Shown here in pieces: positions 6,917 through 13,901 of a stretch of DNA of 13,901 nt (its first letter is position 1; the number at the start of each line of letters is the position of its first letter). The notes beneath the pieces are model-generated. The model was not told the DNA's origin and ran no database searches. It was given only the letters and a program-made list of their open reading frames with translations. The position numbers and the translations under genes are program-made. The DNA lies in the NCBI GenBank assembly GCA_964426185.1, contig CAYRPF010000036.1, positions 14,026 to 27,926 on the forward strand, in the 5' to 3' direction. Source of the stretch: an uncultured archaeon. Its GTDB lineage: Archaea > Asgardarchaeota > Lokiarchaeia > Sigyniarchaeales > Promethearchaeaceae.

Positions 6917-9076
6917 ATGGTCATAGAAACTGATTCTCCACCCACTAATCCTGCAGGCGATTTTGAGGATTTCTTTCGAAATTTCGAGGAAATTCCCAAT
7001 GAATTTAAATACCGGCAGCGAATTAGTGATGCTTATGCAAAATCGGAGCATCACATCACTGTTCTTTTTGAAGATATTCTGGCTTTCAATCCTCAATTAG
7101 CCCATTACTTGAAAAATCATCCCGAAGAAGCCCTTGAAGAAGCTTCAGAAGCCCTAAAAAATATTATTCGGATCGATGCCGGTGGATTTTTTAATCCAGA
7201 TGAAGCTTATTTCGTTCGTATATCTACTTTAAATAATTCCAATGAAGTTTCTTTACGCAGGATCAGATCTGAACATGTAGATACACTAATTTATGTTAAA
7301 GGTATTGTTATTAGGGCTTCGATAATCCGTCCCCAAGTTATACGTGCCATGTTCGAATGTCCGATATGTGGAAATCAGATGCTGGTTGACCAATTAACCA
7401 CCCGGTTGACTCCTCCCCGTGAATGTATGAATCCAACTTGCAATAATAAAAAGGATTTTAAGGTATTAACCGAACAATCCGAGTTTCTCGATCATCAATA
7501 TGTGACTATCCAAGAGGCTCCCGAAGAATTAAGATCGGGAGATATTCCCCAAACTTTACAAGCAGTATTACTGAATGATTTAGTTGATTCAGTTCGTCCT
7601 GGTGAAAGAGTAAAAATGATGGGTATTCTAAAATCCGTCCCACGGGAGGATCGTAGAGGTAGGCTTTCCACCTTATTTCAATCGCAGTTATTCGTAAATA
7701 ATGTAGAAGGGATTCGGCAAGAAGATGAAGAATTGGATCTTTCTCAAGAGGATATCGATGAAATACACGCACTTGCCCAAGAACCGGATATTCAGAATAA
7801 AATTGCGAATTCTATTGCTCGTGCCATATTAGGACACGAGAAATTGAAAATGGCGGCGGCTTTAAGTCTTTTTGGGGGTAATCAGAAACTAAAGAAAGAC
7901 GGTAGTAGACTGCGAGGAGACATCCATGTGCTCTTTATGGGAGATCCCGGTACCGGAAAATCACAAATTTTGCAAAATTGTGCCCAAATTGCTACTCGTT
8001 CCGTATACACCTCTGGGAAAGGCGCTTCGGCGGCGGGTCTTACAGCTGCGGTGATTAAAGAAAACGATAATGCTGGACTGCAATTGGAAGCAGGTGCTTT
8101 AGTCTTGGCCTCCGGTGGTGTGGCATGTATTGATGAATTTGACAAAATGCGCAAACAAGATAGATCAGCTATCCATGAAGCGATGGAACAACAAACTATT
8201 TCTATTGCTAAGGCAGGGATTGTCGCTACTCTTCAATCAAAAACGGCCATAATTGCTGCAGCTAATCCCAAACACGGTCGCTGGAATGAATATGAGACTC
8301 CCGCAAATAATATAAATCTTAACCCTCCGATTCTTTCACGGTTTGATTTGATTTTTATTGTACGCGATATTCCCGAAAAAAATATGGATGATAGAATAGC
8401 CGATTACATTTTAAAGAATCATATGATGGGTTTTGATGAAACTTATTATACCGAAGACGAAGATGAAAATTCTCAATCTCGGAAACAAATAGAATTTATT
8501 CCCATAGATCTACTAAAAAAATATGTGCAATACGCCAAGGTTAATTCACATCCCAAACTGACCAGAGAGCCTGCAAATTTAATTCGGGATTTTTACATAT
8601 CTATGCGTAGTTCTACTCCAGAAGGTTCTACTGCAGTTCCCATTGTCGCACGAACTTTAGACGGAATGGTTCGGATGAGTGAAGCCTATGCAAAAATGGC
8701 TTTACGTGATTTTGTTAAAAAAGAAGATGCTGAAGCTGTTATCGAATTATTGAAAAAATCTTTACGGGATATTGGCTATGATGAAGAAACCAATCAATAT
8801 GATGTAGACGTCATGTATACTGGTACATCCAGTTCTAAACGGCAGAAATTAAACTTAATTTTGAATAAAATAAAAGAGTTGCAAACGGCAAATCCCAAAG
8901 CAGAATTAACTTTCGAGGATATTTTTGAACCACTGGCGCACGAAAAGGGTATCACTGAAGAATTTGTAAGAGCAGCGCTTGATCAGTGGGTTAAGGATTC
9001 TGAATTATACAATCCGCATCCTAATACATGGCGAATGACCAATCCTCCCAAAAAATCGAAAGAAAATCTTAAATAA
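6917..9076 (+). CDS. mcm: Minichromosome maintenance replicative helicase MCM
   Basis: Zn finger CPIC...CMNPTC, QEAPEELRSG..P, VRPGERV, Walker A GDPGTGKS, GLTAAV, LEAGALVLA, MCM box IDEFDKM, IHEAMEQQTISIAKAGI, arginine finger LSRFD, sensor-2 ARTLDG, C-terminal winged helix. 719 aa, no intein. Confidence 0.98.
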   Translation: MVIETDSPPTNPAGDFEDFFRNFEEIPNEFKYRQRISDAYAKSEHHITVLFEDILAFNPQLAHYLKNHPEEALEEASEALKNIIRIDAGGFFNPDEAYFVRISTLNNSNEVSLRRIRSEHVDTLIYVKGIVIRASIIRPQVIRAMFECPICGNQMLVDQLTTRLTPPRECMNPTCNNKKDFKVLTEQSEFLDHQYVTIQEAPEELRSGDIPQTLQAVLLNDLVDSVRPGERVKMMGILKSVPREDRRGRLSTLFQSQLFVNNVEGIRQEDEELDLSQEDIDEIHALAQEPDIQNKIANSIARAILGHEKLKMAAALSLFGGNQKLKKDGSRLRGDIHVLFMGDPGTGKSQILQNCAQIATRSVYTSGKGASAAGLTAAVIKENDNAGLQLEAGALVLASGGVACIDEFDKMRKQDRSAIHEAMEQQTISIAKAGIVATLQSKTAIIAAANPKHGRWNEYETPANNINLNPPILSRFDLIFIVRDIPEKNMDDRIADYILKNHMMGFDETYYTEDEDENSQSRKQIEFIPIDLLKKYVQYAKVNSHPKLTREPANLIRDFYISMRSSTPEGSTAVPIVARTLDGMVRMSEAYAKMALRDFVKKEDAEAVIELLKKSLRDIGYDEETNQYDVDVMYTGTSSSKRQKLNLILNKIKELQTANPKAELTFEDIFEPLAHEKGITEEFVRAALDQWVKDSELYNPHPNTWRMTNPPKKSKENLK

Positions 9077-9091
9077 GATTTTCCTCAGGAA

Positions 9092-11986
9092 GTGAAATTC
9101 ATCATTCCGCCTAAAAATACCACAGAAAACCCAAAAAAAAAACTTTTTGAATCCGTCAAAGTTCAAAAACCTTCAAAAATTCCACTGGAATCATATAATT
9201 GGCAGAATATTCCCTTTCATCTTGAAGTGGTTAATTATTTAAAAAAAAGAAGTATTAGAGAATTATATCCTCCCCAAATCGCAGCTCTTTCTCCCGGATT
9301 ACAAAGACATAATTTACTTATAAGTATTCCCACCGCATCGGGGAAAACCTTGATTGCAGAATTAATTGCTTTAAATTTATTAATGCGAAATCGAGAAAAA
9401 TTTCCAAATCAGATGGGTAATTGGGGTAAAATCCTTTATCTTGCCCCTTTGAAGGCATTAGCTATAGAAAAATATCATGAATTCTCAACACTTTGGAATC
9501 CTCTAGGTTTTCATGTGGGAATCTCGCGCAGCGATGTGGACGAGCCCGATTTTCGGATTTTTCAAAACCATTTGATTATTCTTACGAATGAAAAAGCTGA
9601 TTCATTTTTTAGAATGAACCCAAAATTCCTTAAAGATATAGATTTGGTGATTGTGGATGAAATTCATCTCCTTCGTGACCAACATCGTGGGATCACATTG
9701 GAAGTTTTATTGACTCGTCTATTAACACGAACACCACCCATTCAAATCATCGGGCTATCTGCTACAATACTAAACTCACATGAGTTAGCCCAATGGCTAC
9801 ATGCCGATCTGATCTCCTCCACTTGGCGCCCGGTGCAGTTAAAAGAAGGCTATTACATTGGAGATTCTATCTTTTTTCAAGATGGAAGTACCCGCCGTGT
9901 TATTCCACTTCCCGGCCATTCTACCACTGCTACATTAACACTGGATACCTTGAAGGAAGGTGGACAAGTTATCGTATTTGTCAATTCCCGAAAAAACTCT
10001 ATGCAAGAAGCAGAAAAATTGGCCCCGAAAGTCCGAATTTTCAGTTCTGCTGAAGAAAAGGAAATCTACAAAGCAGTCCAAGTGGAATTTGATAAAAATC
10101 ACTTAGATGATTCCCAGTTAAGTCATCGCCTTTCACATTGCCTAAAAGGAGGAGTTGCGTTTCATCATGCTGGAATGGCTTCAGATCAATTGGATTTTAT
10201 CGTGAAAAAATTCAACTCCCGCAGGATTAAAGTAATTTTCTGCACTCCTACTCTGGCTGCCGGCGTTAATACTCCAGCCCGTCGAGTGATAATTAAGACA
10301 TTGTACCGATATGAAGCTGAAAAAGGGAGTGTTCTAATTCCAATCTTGGAGTATAAGCAAATGGCCGGACGCGCTGGGCGACCAGGTTACGATCCATATG
10401 GAGAAGTAGTTATTTTGGGCAGTAATCCTGAAAAATTGATCAAAGATGCCGTGGCTTATATATTAGGGACTTCGGAAGAAATTCACAGTCAACTGACAAA
10501 TGAAGAATCTTTGGGATTCCATATTTTAGGGTTGTTTTTGGCAGGGGTAGTCAGCACTCCTGCCCAGTTGATTCACTTCGTCAATCATACATTTTATGCA
10601 TTTCAACAATTTTTTCCAAAAGCAACTCAAAAGAGCCGAAACAAAGGTCCAAATGCAAATAACTCAATTGCAAACAATTCAAATGCAAATAAATTAAACG
10701 GAATCGATGCAAAAATAGACTCTTCAAATGGATTGGGAATGAAAACACACAAATTACGCCCAAAATCGCATCGAAAGGAAGGAAGAGGGGCAGATCCATT
10801 AGGATTAAATTCAGAGTTTGATACCACCTTCAGATCGGCTGAAGAAATACTGGAATATTCTGAAAACTCTAATCATAGCGATAACTCCAATTTATTACTT
10901 GATCATAGCGGTTATCCCCGCCCCAAATCTTTTTCTCCTGATTCTTTATCTAATAATTACATTTCTGATACTTCATTACTACCATATTCTCCTCCATCCA
11001 ACTCTTCTTCTCCGCAAACCCTGGATAAAAATTCTGCCCTTCATAACTTAGTGCTATCCCAATTAACCTTTTTATGGAAAAATGATTTCTTAACCGGATA
11101 TTTTGATCCATCTGCTCAAGATCTAAATTCTCCTTTAATTCCCACCAAATTCGGCGAAATTGTTGGACAGAGCTATCTTAATCCACAAGATGCTGTTCTT
11201 CTCCGTGAAGATCTGATTTATGCTAAGACTCTTCATGCAAATAATGAAATCATTCTGCATCCTGTTTCATGGCTTCATTTATTAACCAAATTGAGTGTTT
11301 TCCCTAAGTATTTCATTCAAAGTCGTGAATATTCTCCTATTTTAGATTTTATTGACCGATATAGCGATCATTTTATTATGGAGCAAGTTTGGGATTCTCA
11401 TGATCCACAGTTTCCAGAATTCGCCAAAGAAATTAAAATGACAATGCTCCTCTTTGATTGGATTAATGAAATCCCACAACATGAGATCAACGAAAAATAT
11501 AACATCGGTATGGGCGATATTCGTCGTGTAGTAGATACAGCTTTATGGATTCTGCGCGGTTTTCTACGAATCGTCAAACTTGATGCTGATAATAATTATC
11601 CCATTGAAGGATTGGGAAATAATCTGCAGGTTTTAAATATTCGGATTAAGTATGGTATCCGCTCTAGCCTTGTTCCGTTTGTGCAGATTTCGGGCATCGG
11701 GCGGATTAGAGCACGTAAAATTTATCAAGCAGGATATAAATCCATAGAAGATTTGAAAAAGGCAAGCCTTGAGGACTTATCTCGTATCCCCTTAATCGGA
11801 AAGCATTTGGCTCAAGAAATATATTCGCAATTACATCTGCAAGAAACATTATTAAAATCGGGGAATAAAACGCCCAAATATAAGTTAAATAAGAAAATTT
11901 CTTCCCAATTCTCAAACCATAAAAATAATCATAGTAATCTCGATGATTTCCTTAAAGAGAGTAAGAAAAAAAGGAGAAAATTATAG
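9092..11986 (+). CDS. hel308: Ski2-like SF2 DNA helicase Hel308/Hjm with a large internal insertion
   Basis: Q motif ELYPPQ, motif I PTASGKT, Ia PLKALA, II DEIH, III LSAT, IV FVNSRK, FHHAG, V TPTLAAGVNTPA, VI QMAGRAGRPGYD. WH/ratchet domains (PTKFGE, WINE, GDI) and domain-5 HhH GIGRIRARKIY. 964 aa versus the ~700-750 aa typical of the family. GTG start lies 15 bp after the mcm stop. Confidence 0.95.
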   Translation: MKFIIPPKNTTENPKKKLFESVKVQKPSKIPLESYNWQNIPFHLEVVNYLKKRSIRELYPPQIAALSPGLQRHNLLISIPTASGKTLIAELIALNLLMRNREKFPNQMGNWGKILYLAPLKALAIEKYHEFSTLWNPLGFHVGISRSDVDEPDFRIFQNHLIILTNEKADSFFRMNPKFLKDIDLVIVDEIHLLRDQHRGITLEVLLTRLLTRTPPIQIIGLSATILNSHELAQWLHADLISSTWRPVQLKEGYYIGDSIFFQDGSTRRVIPLPGHSTTATLTLDTLKEGGQVIVFVNSRKNSMQEAEKLAPKVRIFSSAEEKEIYKAVQVEFDKNHLDDSQLSHRLSHCLKGGVAFHHAGMASDQLDFIVKKFNSRRIKVIFCTPTLAAGVNTPARRVIIKTLYRYEAEKGSVLIPILEYKQMAGRAGRPGYDPYGEVVILGSNPEKLIKDAVAYILGTSEEIHSQLTNEESLGFHILGLFLAGVVSTPAQLIHFVNHTFYAFQQFFPKATQKSRNKGPNANNSIANNSNANKLNGIDAKIDSSNGLGMKTHKLRPKSHRKEGRGADPLGLNSEFDTTFRSAEEILEYSENSNHSDNSNLLLDHSGYPRPKSFSPDSLSNNYISDTSLLPYSPPSNSSSPQTLDKNSALHNLVLSQLTFLWKNDFLTGYFDPSAQDLNSPLIPTKFGEIVGQSYLNPQDAVLLREDLIYAKTLHANNEIILHPVSWLHLLTKLSVFPKYFIQSREYSPILDFIDRYSDHFIMEQVWDSHDPQFPEFAKEIKMTMLLFDWINEIPQHEINEKYNIGMGDIRRVVDTALWILRGFLRIVKLDADNNYPIEGLGNNLQVLNIRIKYGIRSSLVPFVQISGIGRIRARKIYQAGYKSIEDLKKASLEDLSRIPLIGKHLAQEIYSQLHLQETLLKSGNKTPKYKLNKKISSQFSNHKNNHSNLDDFLKESKKKRRKL
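10650..10694 (+). repeat. Degenerate 15-bp tandem repeat x3 within the hel308 insertion
   Basis: caaatgcaaataact / caattgcaaacaatt / caaatgcaaataaat, encoding NANNS-IANNS-NANK. Confidence 0.75.
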
Positions 11987-12029: not shown

Positions 12030-12587
12030 TCACACTGGTGTTATATCATCCATCCCAGTGCAGCTCTTTATCATCGAAATAAATGCTTCGTTAACATGAT
12101 ATCCAGTTTTCGCCGAAGTATAAAGCACCTTATCGATTCCAACATCTGCAGCGATCTCTCGAACACGATTTTCTTTTATCTCAGCCGGTAAATCGTTTTT
12201 ATTGGCCAGCAGAATGATAGGAACACTCTCCGCTGCCGAACCGCCATGTTCCTTGAAATCCGGCACCCAAAAATTCTTTACCTGCTCAAAAGAATTTTTC
12301 CGTGTTAAATCCGCCACCACAAAAACACCCTGCGCCCCCCGATAATAGGTATGCCTCATGGCTGTCCATCTTTCTTGACCAGCAATGTCCCAAGCAGTAA
12401 TGGTAAATTGCAGCGAATCTTCTGCGGAGTTTTTAAAGGTAAGTTTTTTGATGAAAAGATTAGATCCTATGGTTGGGCGATAATCCTTCGTATAAGCCCC
12501 TTCTACGAAATTTTTAATTAATGAGGTCTTTCCGGCTGCGTATTCTCCGATGAGAATAAGTTTTAGTTTATAAATTTGAGTTGTCAT
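12030..12587 (-). CDS. Rab-like small GTPase (Ras superfamily; Asgard-type eukaryotic signature protein)
   Basis: G1 GEYAAGKTS, G2 YRPTIG, G3 WDIAGQE, G4 NKND, G5 TSAK, and an exact RabF4 YYRGA. 185 aa, with no C-terminal CC/CXC/CAAX. Confidence 0.93.
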   Translation of the reverse strand: MTTQIYKLKLILIGEYAAGKTSLIKNFVEGAYTKDYRPTIGSNLFIKKLTFKNSAEDSLQFTITAWDIAGQERWTAMRHTYYRGAQGVFVVADLTRKNSFEQVKNFWVPDFKEHGGSAAESVPIILLANKNDLPAEIKENRVREIAADVGIDKVLYTSAKTGYHVNEAFISMIKSCTGMDDITPV

Positions 12588-12685: not shown

Positions 12686-13813
12686 TTAATCTCCATGAAA
12701 GGATTTCCAATAAGGATTCATCAATGAATTTAAGTATGGGATGACTTTGTCATTATTGAACGCCATTACTTCGTCAGATTCCGAGATTATGCTTGATTCC
12801 TTAAATGGTGGATTGAATTTTGCCAAGGCTGCAATAGTATTGGCGATCGAATGACTTAAAGCCGTTAAGTCATACCCTCCTTCTAATGTAGCTAAAATTC
12901 GATCATGGTTAAGGTCACTCATTACATTTTGCATGGTTTTTACCATCCAAGTATAGGTTTGTTCCATAAATCCCAAATTAGTTAAAGGATCATTGTGATG
13001 GCCATCATATCCTGCTGAAATTAGCAGAAATTCTGGATTAAATTCACGCAAAGCCGGAATTATTACTGTTTGAAACATTTGTTTGATGGTTTCATGTCCG
13101 GAAGAGGGGGCTAAGGTCAGATTGAAGATTTTTCCTTGATGTTCACCCTCTCCAATTTCATTTACATAACATGTGCCGGGATATAAGGTATCTGGGTGTT
13201 GGTGCAAGGAAATCATAAGCAAATCTGCAGGAATGTGTCCTTCATTCATCAAATCTTCAGTTCCATTGCCTGCATGTGCATCAAAATCCACAATGGCCAT
13301 TTTTTTCATACCATAATGATGGTATAAATAATTCACTGCCAGTCCGATATTGTTAAAAATACAAAATCCCCGAGCGTTTGCGTAATCGGAATGATGACCG
13401 GGAGGACGGCACAGATTAAAGGCACTATCAATTTTTCTATTCATAATAGCATCAATTGCTGTAAACATTCCCCCTGCAGCATAAAGTGCTGCGTCGTAAC
13501 TCTGCGGTGACGCCACAGTTTCACCGTAACGATTGTTTGGAGAATCGAGAAATAATTGATATGGGAGCGAAATTGCCTCTTTGCAGCGGATTCTGGCGGT
13601 TTCAATCAATTCAAGGGCGTGACACCAACGAATTTCTTCTACAGTGGCTTTTCGGGGCTTGAGAGGTTCAATCCAAGATAAATGACCATCTCCAAAGAAA
13701 TCGAGTGAGGTTAAAGTTTCAAGGGTTCTTCTCAATCGATCAGGGTTCTCAGGATGATCTCCCGTTTCATGCTGTAAAAAAATATCATGGAATATTATCC
13801 CCACCTGTTTCAT
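12686..13813 (-). CDS. Zn-dependent histone deacetylase family protein (class II-like / AcuC-AphA superfamily)
   Basis: HPENPDRL, RPPGHH (catalytic His pair), GFCIFNN, DFDAHAGNGT (Zn ligands D, H), SLHQ, YPGT, SAGYDGH..DP (third ligand D), LEGGY (catalytic Tyr). ATG13813 is preceded by SD-like GGTGA at 7 nt and is preferred over TTG13834. Confidence 0.95.
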   Translation of the reverse strand: MKQVGIIFHDIFLQHETGDHPENPDRLRRTLETLTSLDFFGDGHLSWIEPLKPRKATVEEIRWCHALELIETARIRCKEAISLPYQLFLDSPNNRYGETVASPQSYDAALYAAGGMFTAIDAIMNRKIDSAFNLCRPPGHHSDYANARGFCIFNNIGLAVNYLYHHYGMKKMAIVDFDAHAGNGTEDLMNEGHIPADLLMISLHQHPDTLYPGTCYVNEIGEGEHQGKIFNLTLAPSSGHETIKQMFQTVIIPALREFNPEFLLISAGYDGHHNDPLTNLGFMEQTYTWMVKTMQNVMSDLNHDRILATLEGGYDLTALSHSIANTIAALAKFNPPFKESSIISESDEVMAFNNDKVIPYLNSLMNPYWKSFHGD

Positions 13814-13901
13814 TAATTTTTCACCAGAAGTCAATCTGCTACGGAATTTAGTTCTGGTTACTTATCCTTTTTTAACTATAAAATTATATTCCCTATTAAA
13901 A

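Follow-up and report, generated by a model that had tools for sequence, protein, structure and literature searches.

A contact of archaeal Hel308 helicases with the recombinase RadA has long been suspected. HELQ is stimulated through direct contact with RAD51, at a site that a 2026 review leaves unnamed, and Hel308 limits recombination; the same review describes a Hel308-RadA contact as "suggested, though clear data is lacking" (PMC13623763). The locus analyzed here, in a 13,901-nucleotide stretch of Lokiarchaeial DNA (the window), raises the question of whether a Hel308 protein can carry its own docking site for RadA. Hel308 from this locus probably binds RadA directly, because an insertion in the protein holds a conserved copy of the FxxA motif with which RadA binds itself. 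The proposed contact and that of HELQ with RAD51 involve the same helicase family, with the difference that canonical Hel308 lacks the insert.

The hel308 gene and its surroundings

6917..9076, + strand: mcm gene (Pfam MCM, MCM_OB, MCM_lid and MCM_N), 15 bp upstream of hel308 and on the same strand
9092..11986, + strand: hel308 gene with a GTG start, encoding a 964-aa Ski2-like/Hel308 DNA helicase (ORF list, translation, Pfam and AF2)
11939..11983, + strand: C-terminal L950-D-D-F-L954 and K/R tail, predicted helix 950-963, possible PIP-like docking motif

The Pfam architecture of the 964-aa protein comprises DEAD (residues 60-227), Helicase_C (335-432), Helicase_dom4_arc (726-855) and HHH_5 (865-914). 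Together with a confident AF2 model (mean pLDDT 83.5) these matches supply the parts expected of a Hel308, namely two RecA-like domains, a winged helix, a ratchet (domain 4) and a C-terminal HhH, and homologs of the protein carry the name Hel308 in their sources. The adjacency of mcm and hel308 is repeated at nine orthologous loci. At the C-terminus, where the consensus of alignment A3 ends in L-x-x-F, the LDDFL tail is possibly a PIP-like docking motif separate from the FxxA module. A second Hel308 paralog is encoded on another contig of the genome (C77); its insert differs, and neither the FxxA nor the SWIM pattern was found there.

A disordered insertion with two islands

10616..11035, + strand: disordered insertion, residues ~509-648 (~140 aa), within the winged-helix domain, flanked by the T-F-Y-x-x-Q helix and the winged-helix helix that follows
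10748..10807, + strand: basic run, then conserved island 1, G564-R-G-x-D568-P569-L570-x-L572 (island at 10781-10807)
10823..10855, + strand: island 2, T578-T-F580-R-S582-A583-E-E-I586-L587-E588, an FxxA motif resembling the RadA polymerization linker
10838..10861, + strand: A583-S590, a short amphipathic helix adjoining the F-x-x-A core on its C-terminal side (DSSP on the AF2 model)

The aligned span that holds the insertion measures 197 residues in this Hel308 against ~50 in Hel308 proteins without it, and in the alignment no such insert is seen in canonical Hel308, including the other Asgard proteins P0095 and P0102. The initial annotation had picked out TTFRSAEEILE, with F580 and A583, as an ordered-looking island within the insert, and both the translation and the model agree. 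Since AF2 gives pLDDT below 50 throughout residues 517-623 save for the helix at 583-590 (block mean 58), which is also the sole DSSP helix of that low-confidence stretch, an ordered island within a disordered insert is real. With a 63-sequence alignment as input, AF2 docked no part of 517-623 on the helicase body, and the motif thus lies in an accessible, disordered location. This placement bears on the notion that the island works in cis, as an autoregulatory or structural element that folds onto the Hel308 body or onto DNA, for example by gating the DNA path at the winged helix and ratchet. The insert does emerge from the winged-helix domain near that path, a basic run lies ahead of the islands, and disordered inserts are often autoinhibitory tethers; the undocked insert of the model nevertheless speaks against a role in cis, which would also leave unexplained the likeness to the RadA linker and the fact that F-x-[ST]-A turns up again, at another point of insertion, in further clades, and we consider such a role quite improbable.

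Conservation of the islands

Conservation was gauged across 38 Lokiarchaeial-type orthologs, a set that reaches down to 34% full-length identity with the reference Hel308. Pairwise identity is 13-14% in the flanks of the insert, 42% in the FxxA island, 56% in the helicase core and 60% in island 1, which is thus better conserved than the FxxA island. Within island 2, F580 and A583 are each kept in 37 of 38 sequences and residue 582 is Ser or Thr in 35 (19 Ser, 16 Thr); position 585 is acidic in 27, 586 hydrophobic in all 38 and 587 hydrophobic in 33. Island 1, which includes A-D-P-L-G-L at residues 567-572 on the N-terminal side of the FxxA island, retains P569 in every ortholog, G566 in 35/38, D568 in 33/38 and L570 in 32/38. 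The initial annotation had proposed an alignment to see whether the motif and DPLG hold while the surrounding insert diverges; in agreement with its prediction, F-x-[ST]-A-x-[DE] and D-P-L-G are conserved across the Lokiarchaeial orthologs, and the remaining insert cannot be aligned. Island 2 accordingly has the sequence features of an FxxA short linear motif, with conserved Phe and Ala at i and i+3 and a conserved Thr/Ser at i+2, the latter being typical of BRC repeats and of RAD51/RadA linkers (PMC4855620).

The motif is kept in 11 of 12 orthologs from family-level genomes (L005-L013, L015 and L016, the last as F-I-Q-A) and is missing from L014, of sister family f2; in a sister Lokiarchaeial group made up of P0040-43 and L014, the insert is there and the motif was not found. 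A few orthologs have substitutions at the hot spots (F to L in P0038, A to S in P0035), and Ser in the Ala position inactivates BRC4 (PMC4855620). A search of all six-frame ORFs of the genome with an island HMM and a regular expression found no further protein with the module, and thus no BRCA2-like multi-repeat protein in this genome.

Four residues in a low-complexity insert could in principle match by chance and have no function. About 0.3 occurrences of F-x-[ST]-A are expected in a protein the size of Hel308, and the ORFs of the genome hold 0.33 per 1000 aa, or 0.04 per 1000 aa for F-x-[ST]-A-x-[DE]. The motif alone is therefore not rare, and it exceeds chance through being kept at one relative position in 37/38 diverged orthologs whose inserts are otherwise 13-14% identical, to which is added independent recurrence in three other clades. 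A chance origin is barely credible, and the conservation data contradict it.

Likeness to the RadA polymerization linker

RadA and RAD51 self-associate through a motif, G-F-x-T-A-x-E, in the linker that joins the N-terminal domain to the ATPase core, and the Hel308 island shares with it F-x-[ST]-A followed by an acidic and two hydrophobic residues. The linker of the RadA encoded in this genome reads G-F-K-T-A-D-I-V-W-E and the Hel308 island T-F-R-S-A-E-E-I-L-E. The island differs in lying within a disordered insertion of a helicase, away from any adjoining recombinase domains, and in that it usually has neither the Gly ahead of the motif nor the E-R-R behind it. A single-sequence BLOSUM62 scan with the RadA linker of the genome returned the island as the top window with a score of 13, against an average of 17.4 for the best windows of insert-less controls; by such a scan some orthologs strongly resemble the RadA linker outside F-x-[ST]-A as well, and the reference Hel308 does so modestly. 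Because that scan discriminated weakly, it was replaced by a 14-column PSSM, for which 93 RadA/Rad51 linkers were used. With the PSSM, the island scores 13.4 bits, the second-best window of the same protein 4.3 bits and the best window among 159 insert-less Hel308 proteins 10.8 bits, and the island outscores every other window of the protein in 34 of 40 Loki-type Hel308 sequences (36 when two partial sequences are counted). Some orthologs match the P. furiosus RadA linker at 7/11 positions (F-x-x-A-x-E-Y-L-K-x-R).

Predicted complex with the RadA core

A complex of the cognate RadA core (residues 183-423) with the Hel308 island (550-603), predicted with alignments for both partners, gave ipSAE values of 0.81, 0.82 and 0.81, compared with 0.00 for the best of three controls; the ipSAE mark applied was attained by 58 of 80 solved complexes and by 2 of 110 mismatched pairs. 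The runs share at least 79% of their contacts, and partner pLDDT is only ~50. Passing this mark shows likeness only and may reflect the predictor's memory of structures, because RAD51-BRC4 and RadA-FxxA peptide complexes have been solved.

Confident contacts on the Hel308 side fall at residues 578-584, 586, 587 and 590, and on the RadA side at 228, 245-246, 253, 255-256, 258, 270, 272-279, 293-294, 297 and 301. In the predicted complex, F580 and A583 occupy the established FxxA pocket of RadA. By alignment, RadA residues 245, 277, 278, 293 and 297 correspond to P. furiosus I169, Y201, V202, Q217 and K221, and residue 245 is presumably the equivalent of human M158. M158 is on the list of PMC4855620. 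In PMC3594973, the Phe pocket of P. furiosus RadA is described with Y201, V202 and K221 at its rim and Q217 lining it; I169 would be a further pocket residue, to judge from the mutant name MAYSAM used there, as the sixth humanized residue. An isolated F-H-T-A tetrapeptide binds RadA weakly, with a Kd of 170-250 uM (PMC3594973), and the motif by itself may therefore give low affinity. Island 1 is absent from the confident interface in this prediction; under the broader proposition given further below, it would be a second docking module.

The partner might also be something other than RadA, either a RadA paralog with a similar pocket or RPA. RPA binds amphipathic acidic helices, and the helix that follows the motif is amphipathic and often acidic. 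The genome encodes RadA paralogs, one of which is the 330-aa L002, and in several relatives a RadA paralog adjoins a second Hel308 paralog. RPA is moreover the one documented partner of archaeal Hel308, contact with RadA being undocumented (PMC13623763). Set against this, the small, invariant Ala at +3, together with Ser/Thr at +2, is what marks an FxxA motif and not an acidic RPA-binding helix, and in several orthologs the helix after the motif is net basic (K/R/H). The RadA-linker profile picks the island specifically, and the docking prediction with RadA passes where its controls score zero. A partner of this other kind seems to us unlikely, and RadA itself is preferred.

Relation to BRC repeats and BRCv motifs

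The initial annotation had proposed a BRC-like mimic that docks on RadA. Docking in the FxxA pocket is indeed predicted; the comparison with BRC needs adjustment, the island being closer to the RadA polymerization linker than to a BRC repeat. As in the BRC repeats of BRCA2, an FxxA with a conserved Thr/Ser, placed in a disordered region, mimics the recombinase's own motif, and the Hel308 variants F-Q-T-A, F-S-T-A, F-T-T-A and F-R-S-A have counterparts in human BRC repeats and RAD51; modeled F and A also occupy the pocket of RadA self-association (PMC4855620). The Hel308 motif is, unlike BRC repeats, present in single copy and preceded by the conserved G-R-G-x-D-P-L-x-L, and homology is not indicated. 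A second module of the L-F-D-E type, ~17-20 residues past FxxA in a BRC repeat of ~35 aa, was not found, the columns after residue 590 being without consensus, nor does Hel308 have a Pfam BRCA2-repeat match at E<=0.01. A reading of the island as a BRC-repeat homolog is rejected on these two results.

Functionally, the island comes closest to the BRCv motifs of eukaryotic homologous recombination helicases. These motifs are of the F-x-T-A-[S/T] type, lie in disordered extensions of the helicases, bind RAD51 and serve to control filaments or recruitment (PMC7949153). They occur in RECQL5 and MCM9 and have been proposed in Srs2, Sgs1, Mph1 and Pif1 (PMC7949153). The published pattern consists of motif 1 (F-x-T-A-[S/T]-x-x-x-hydrophobic-x-hydrophobic-S), a linker of ~14 aa and motif 2 (hydrophobic-L-[DE]-[DE]) (PMC7949153). 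Nine of the 38 Hel308 orthologs have Ser at +4, but their hydrophobic residues stand at +6/+7 as against +8/+10, and no conserved motif 2 was found. The Hel308 case differs further in its archaeal host, its candidate partner RadA and the position of the motif within the winged-helix domain instead of a C-terminal extension. By analogy, the island may be called BRCv-like in its working while falling outside the BRCv pattern. No earlier description of FxxA or BRCv motifs in archaeal helicases, or of the Asgard Hel308 insert, was found in the literature.

Recurrence in other Hel308 clades

In at least three euryarchaeal clades, Hel308 independently has F-x-[S/T/R]-A within another winged-helix insertion. 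The Methanimicrococcus/Methanolapillus proteins have a different insert, in the wing of the winged helix, where 33 of 34 sequences keep P-F-V-T-A-D (the linker of Methanimicrococcus RadA itself reads F-E-T-G); in a clade close to Methanoliparia the motif is E-F-K-R-A-E-E-Y-L, which its nearest relatives lack; and two haloarchaeon-like genomes encode A-F-T-S-A in Hel308.

A proposed mechanism and its implications

We regard it as fairly likely that residues ~578-590 form a short linear motif that mimics the RadA polymerization linker and docks Hel308 on the RadA core. The support is computational throughout: the motif, its conservation, its disordered setting, its likeness to the RadA linker, the controlled in silico docking and the convergence. 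We see in the island a probable short linear motif for docking on RadA, and with it a new archaeal form of the BRC/BRCv principle. The motif would sit on a long disordered tether emerging from the winged-helix domain, from which F580 and A583 would insert into two hydrophobic pockets of the RadA ATPase core, where the F-x-x-A of a neighboring protomer normally sits. Free RadA, or the end of a RadA filament that is left exposed, could in this way be docked by Hel308, which would compete there with the self-association of RadA. The likely outcome of such binding would be that Hel308 is brought to recombination intermediates and caps or destabilizes RadA filaments during translocation; alternatively, RadA may stimulate Hel308. 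The motif may serve to remodel filaments or only to tether Hel308.

The proposal offers a precise and mutable candidate interface, F580 and A583, for the long-suspected contact of Hel308 with RadA, and the Methanimicrococcus and haloarchaeon-like clades repeat the case naturally in euryarchaea that can be cultivated or are genetically closer. If it is true, it would give a mechanistic handle on the restraint of recombination by Hel308, and the FxxA mimicry that regulates the recombinase in BRCA2, RECQL5 and MCM9 would also work in archaea and would have arisen convergently several times. A broader proposition, for which we find the balance even, is that mimics of RadA self-association evolved repeatedly on disordered winged-helix inserts of Hel308, with a single origin in Lokiarchaeia and three or more in Halobacteriota, so that Hel308 would regulate RadA filaments directly and by competition. 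Control in the style of BRC and BRCv would then predate eukaryotes, would be present in their closest archaeal relatives and might be the ancestral principle behind the contact of HELQ with RAD51.

A conserved motif in the Hel308 insertion

It is clear from Pfam that this Hel308 has its full complement of domains: the two RecA-like domains (DEAD and Helicase_C), the archaeal ratchet domain (helicase domain 4) and the C-terminal HhH. In the alignment, 197 residues separate the T-F-Y-x-x-Q helix of its winged-helix (WH) domain from the P-T-x-F-G segment, versus about 50 in ordinary Hel308. The FxxA island that the initial annotation had read within this insertion is identical on translation of the ORF, with A-D-P-L-G-L ten residues upstream. 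The features concerned are:

9092-11986, + strand: hel308, 964 aa (ORF list, translation)
10781-10807, + strand: island 1, G564-R-G-x-D-P-L-x-L572, with a basic K/R run from 10748
10823-10855, + strand: FxxA island, residues 578-588, T-T-F-R-S-A-E-E-I-L-E (translation)

In an AlphaFold2 model from a 63-sequence alignment the helicase body is modelled confidently (mean pLDDT 83.5), and no packing of the insert on the helicase is predicted. Because residues 517-623 have pLDDT below 50, with a sole short helix (583-590) directly after F-x-x-A, the insert is modelled as a long disordered tether bearing one small ordered element. At the C-terminus, L-D-D-F-L and a following K/R tail (11939-11983, predicted helical at 950-963) may form a PIP-like PCNA-docking tail; a consensus L-x-x-F closes the multi-clade Hel308 alignment.

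The ORFs of this genome contain F-x-[ST]-A at a frequency of 0.33 per 1000 residues, and a single occurrence, taken alone, is not beyond chance. The decisive argument that the motif exceeds chance is its conservation across aligned orthologues. Whole-genome searches of 40 relatives, together with a protein search, recovered about 40 Lokiarchaeial-type insert carriers, including source-named proteins of Candidatus Harpocratesius, Promethearchaeum syntrophicum and Lokiarchaeum ossiferum. Among 38 aligned islands the only columns conserved at 90% or more are G566, P569, F580 and A583; F580 and A583 are each kept in 37, S/T at 582 in 35 and an acidic residue at 585 in 27, and positions 586 and 587 are hydrophobic in 38 and 33, respectively. 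The suggestion that the motif and the D-P-L island would be kept while their surroundings diverged is borne out, pairwise identity being 42% in the FxxA island and 60% in island 1, versus 13-14% in the flanks, 16% in the spacer and 56% in the helicase core. This pattern points to two short linear motifs under selection within an otherwise free-drifting insert. The sister group (P0040-P0043 and the sister-family locus L014) has a shorter, motif-free insert, and the aligned Hel308 proteins of other Asgards (P0095, P0102) have none. Hel308-like proteins of Lokiarchaeial family f3 (L018-L032) carry a C-x-C ... C-x-H insert (SWIM-like zinc finger) at the same WH site, with no FxxA module.

Likeness to RadA and the predicted complex

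The RadA of this genome (L001:961-2232, 423 aa) has the polymerisation linker I-G-F-K-T-A-D-I-V-W-E-R-R, of which G-F-K-T-A-D-x-V-W-E is kept in Lokiarchaeial RadA orthologues. Its usual HhH domain is preceded by an N-terminal extension of about 100 residues, Lys-rich (K/T/A repeats) and then acidic. When a 14-column log-odds profile of the linker, from 93 RadA/Rad51 sequences, was slid along every Hel308, the insert island was the top-scoring window of the whole protein in 34 of 40 Lokiarchaeial-type sequences (36 counting two partial ones). In the Hel308 studied here it scored 13.4 bits, the runner-up 4.3, and none of 159 insert-less Hel308 proteins had a window above 10.8; a single-sequence linker scan was far less discriminating for this protein. 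The likeness extends well past F-x-x-A in several orthologues (e.g. F-x-T-A-x-x-[IY]-W-E), one of which shares seven of eleven residues with the RadA linker of P. furiosus; in the present Hel308 it rests chiefly on F, S and A together with the acidic and the two hydrophobic residues.

A controlled complex predictor was given the RadA ATPase core (183-423, 93-row alignment) and Hel308 550-603 (38-row alignment). Three runs, sharing at least 79% of contacts, scored 0.81, 0.82 and 0.81 versus 0.00 for the top of three controls. Among solved complexes 58 of 80 attain such a mark, and among mismatched pairs 2 of 110; partner pLDDT in the complex was about 50. The confident Hel308 interface (578-584, 586, 587, 590) is exactly the FxxA finding, and that on RadA comprises 228, 245-246, 253, 255-256, 258, 270, 272-279, 293-294, 297 and 301. 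In human RAD51 numbering, with residue types checked against PMC4855620, these contacts would be M158, F166, P168, L171, L186, V189-A192, A207 and M210. So numbered, the modelled contacts make up the Phe pocket, the Ala pocket and the strand that the motif pairs with. RadA 245, 277, 278, 293 and 297 align with P. furiosus I169, Y201, V202, Q217 and K221 (1PZN); Y201, V202 and K221 rim the Phe pocket and Q217 lines it, according to PMC3594973, and I169 we infer to be the sixth humanised residue from the mutant name MAYSAM. The docking on cognate RadA that the initial annotation envisaged is predicted in the model, with the FxxA pocket occupied, and because RAD51-BRC4 and RadA-peptide complexes are already solved, the result demonstrates likeness to a known interface in the model, not binding by this Hel308 copy.

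Island 1, situated 8-22 residues ahead of FxxA, is the best-conserved part of the insert (P569 in 38 of 38). It lies outside the confident RadA-core interface and is not docked in cis in the AlphaFold2 model; it is not present in euryarchaeal Hel308 inserts, and an island HMM found no other carrier of the Hel308 island in this genome.

Comparison with known systems

Mimicry of FxxA by recombinase regulators is well known in eukaryotes, in BRCA2 BRC repeats, the BRCv of RECQL5 and MCM9, and BRCv-type motifs have been proposed for Srs2, Sgs1, Mph1 and Pif1 (PMC4855620, PMC7949153). The Hel308 module does not qualify as a BRC repeat, there being no second L-F-D-E-type module and no Pfam match. 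The hydrophobic spacing of BRCv motifs is unlike that of the Hel308 module, to which the RadA linker is nearer than either BRC repeat or BRCv. A literature search turned up no account of FxxA motifs in archaeal helicases and none of the Lokiarchaeial insert. A 2026 review states that the Hel308-RadA contact still lacks clear data (PMC13623763).

Halobacteriota Hel308 offers F-x-[S/T/R]-A in a WH-wing insertion in three separate clades (loci L054, L057, L059, Methanimicrococcus; L068-L070; L072-L073). The Methanimicrococcus/Methanolapillus insertion lies elsewhere in the WH, at the wing after the recognition helix, is absent from Methanosarcina Hel308, and in 33 of 34 sequences contains [S/P]-F-[V/Q/M]-[T/S/R]-A-[D/N] between low-complexity flanks that vary. 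Because the linker of RadA itself in these genera is F-E-T-G, and Ala to Gly cuts tetrapeptide affinity about six-fold (PMC4855620), we infer that F-x-T-A on the helicase could prevail over the native contact. A sample of 120 genomes of the same phylum (41 usable loci) turned up two further wing inserts, E-F-K-R-A-E-E-Y-L-N-K in one clade but not in the named relatives nearest to it (Candidatus Methanoliparum, 60% identity), and A-F-T-S-A in two haloarchaeon-like genomes. In those 41 loci a wing insert of at least 20 residues comes with such a motif in every clade concerned, Arg at the third position having been allowed post hoc. By sequence, these inserts appear to be independent natural replicates of the Lokiarchaeial motif.

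Genomic context and proposed mechanism

The genes flanking hel308 are:

6917-9076, + strand: mcm, 15 bp upstream
12030-12587, - strand: Ras-family small GTPase, downstream (Pfam Ras 2e-37)
12686-13834, - strand: histone-deacetylase-family protein, downstream

The latter two are typical Asgard 'eukaryote-like' genes. As the mcm-hel308 adjacency recurs in nine orthologous loci (L005-L013, tblastn), a conserved operon joining the replicative helicase gene to hel308 is suggested. Elsewhere, four relatives' genomes have a second Hel308 paralogue with a RadA paralogue (39-45% identity to RadA) nearby, at about 1.5-2.6 kb in G005:C8, G006:C36 and G010:C1 (5617583-5621179) and about 11 kb in G015:C47, and this proximity is a genomic link between both families.

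What emerges computationally is a module that is conserved and exposed, mimics the motif by which RadA self-associates, is carried on a flexible tether and is predicted to occupy the self-association pocket. Hel308 would dock on free RadA, or on a filament end with a vacant pocket, and would thereby compete with RadA-RadA contacts. Less probably, the motif would bind a RadA paralogue or RPA instead. Because the affinity of FxxA tetrapeptides alone for RadA is weak (170-250 uM; PMC3594973), help from the second island, from the helix after the motif or from avidity on a filament is probably needed. Hel308/HELQ restrain recombination and HELQ is stimulated through direct RAD51 contact (PMC13623763), so the likely outcomes are that Hel308 would be recruited to RadA-coated intermediates, capping or peeling the filament while translocating 3'-5', or, alternatively, that the helicase would be activated by RadA.
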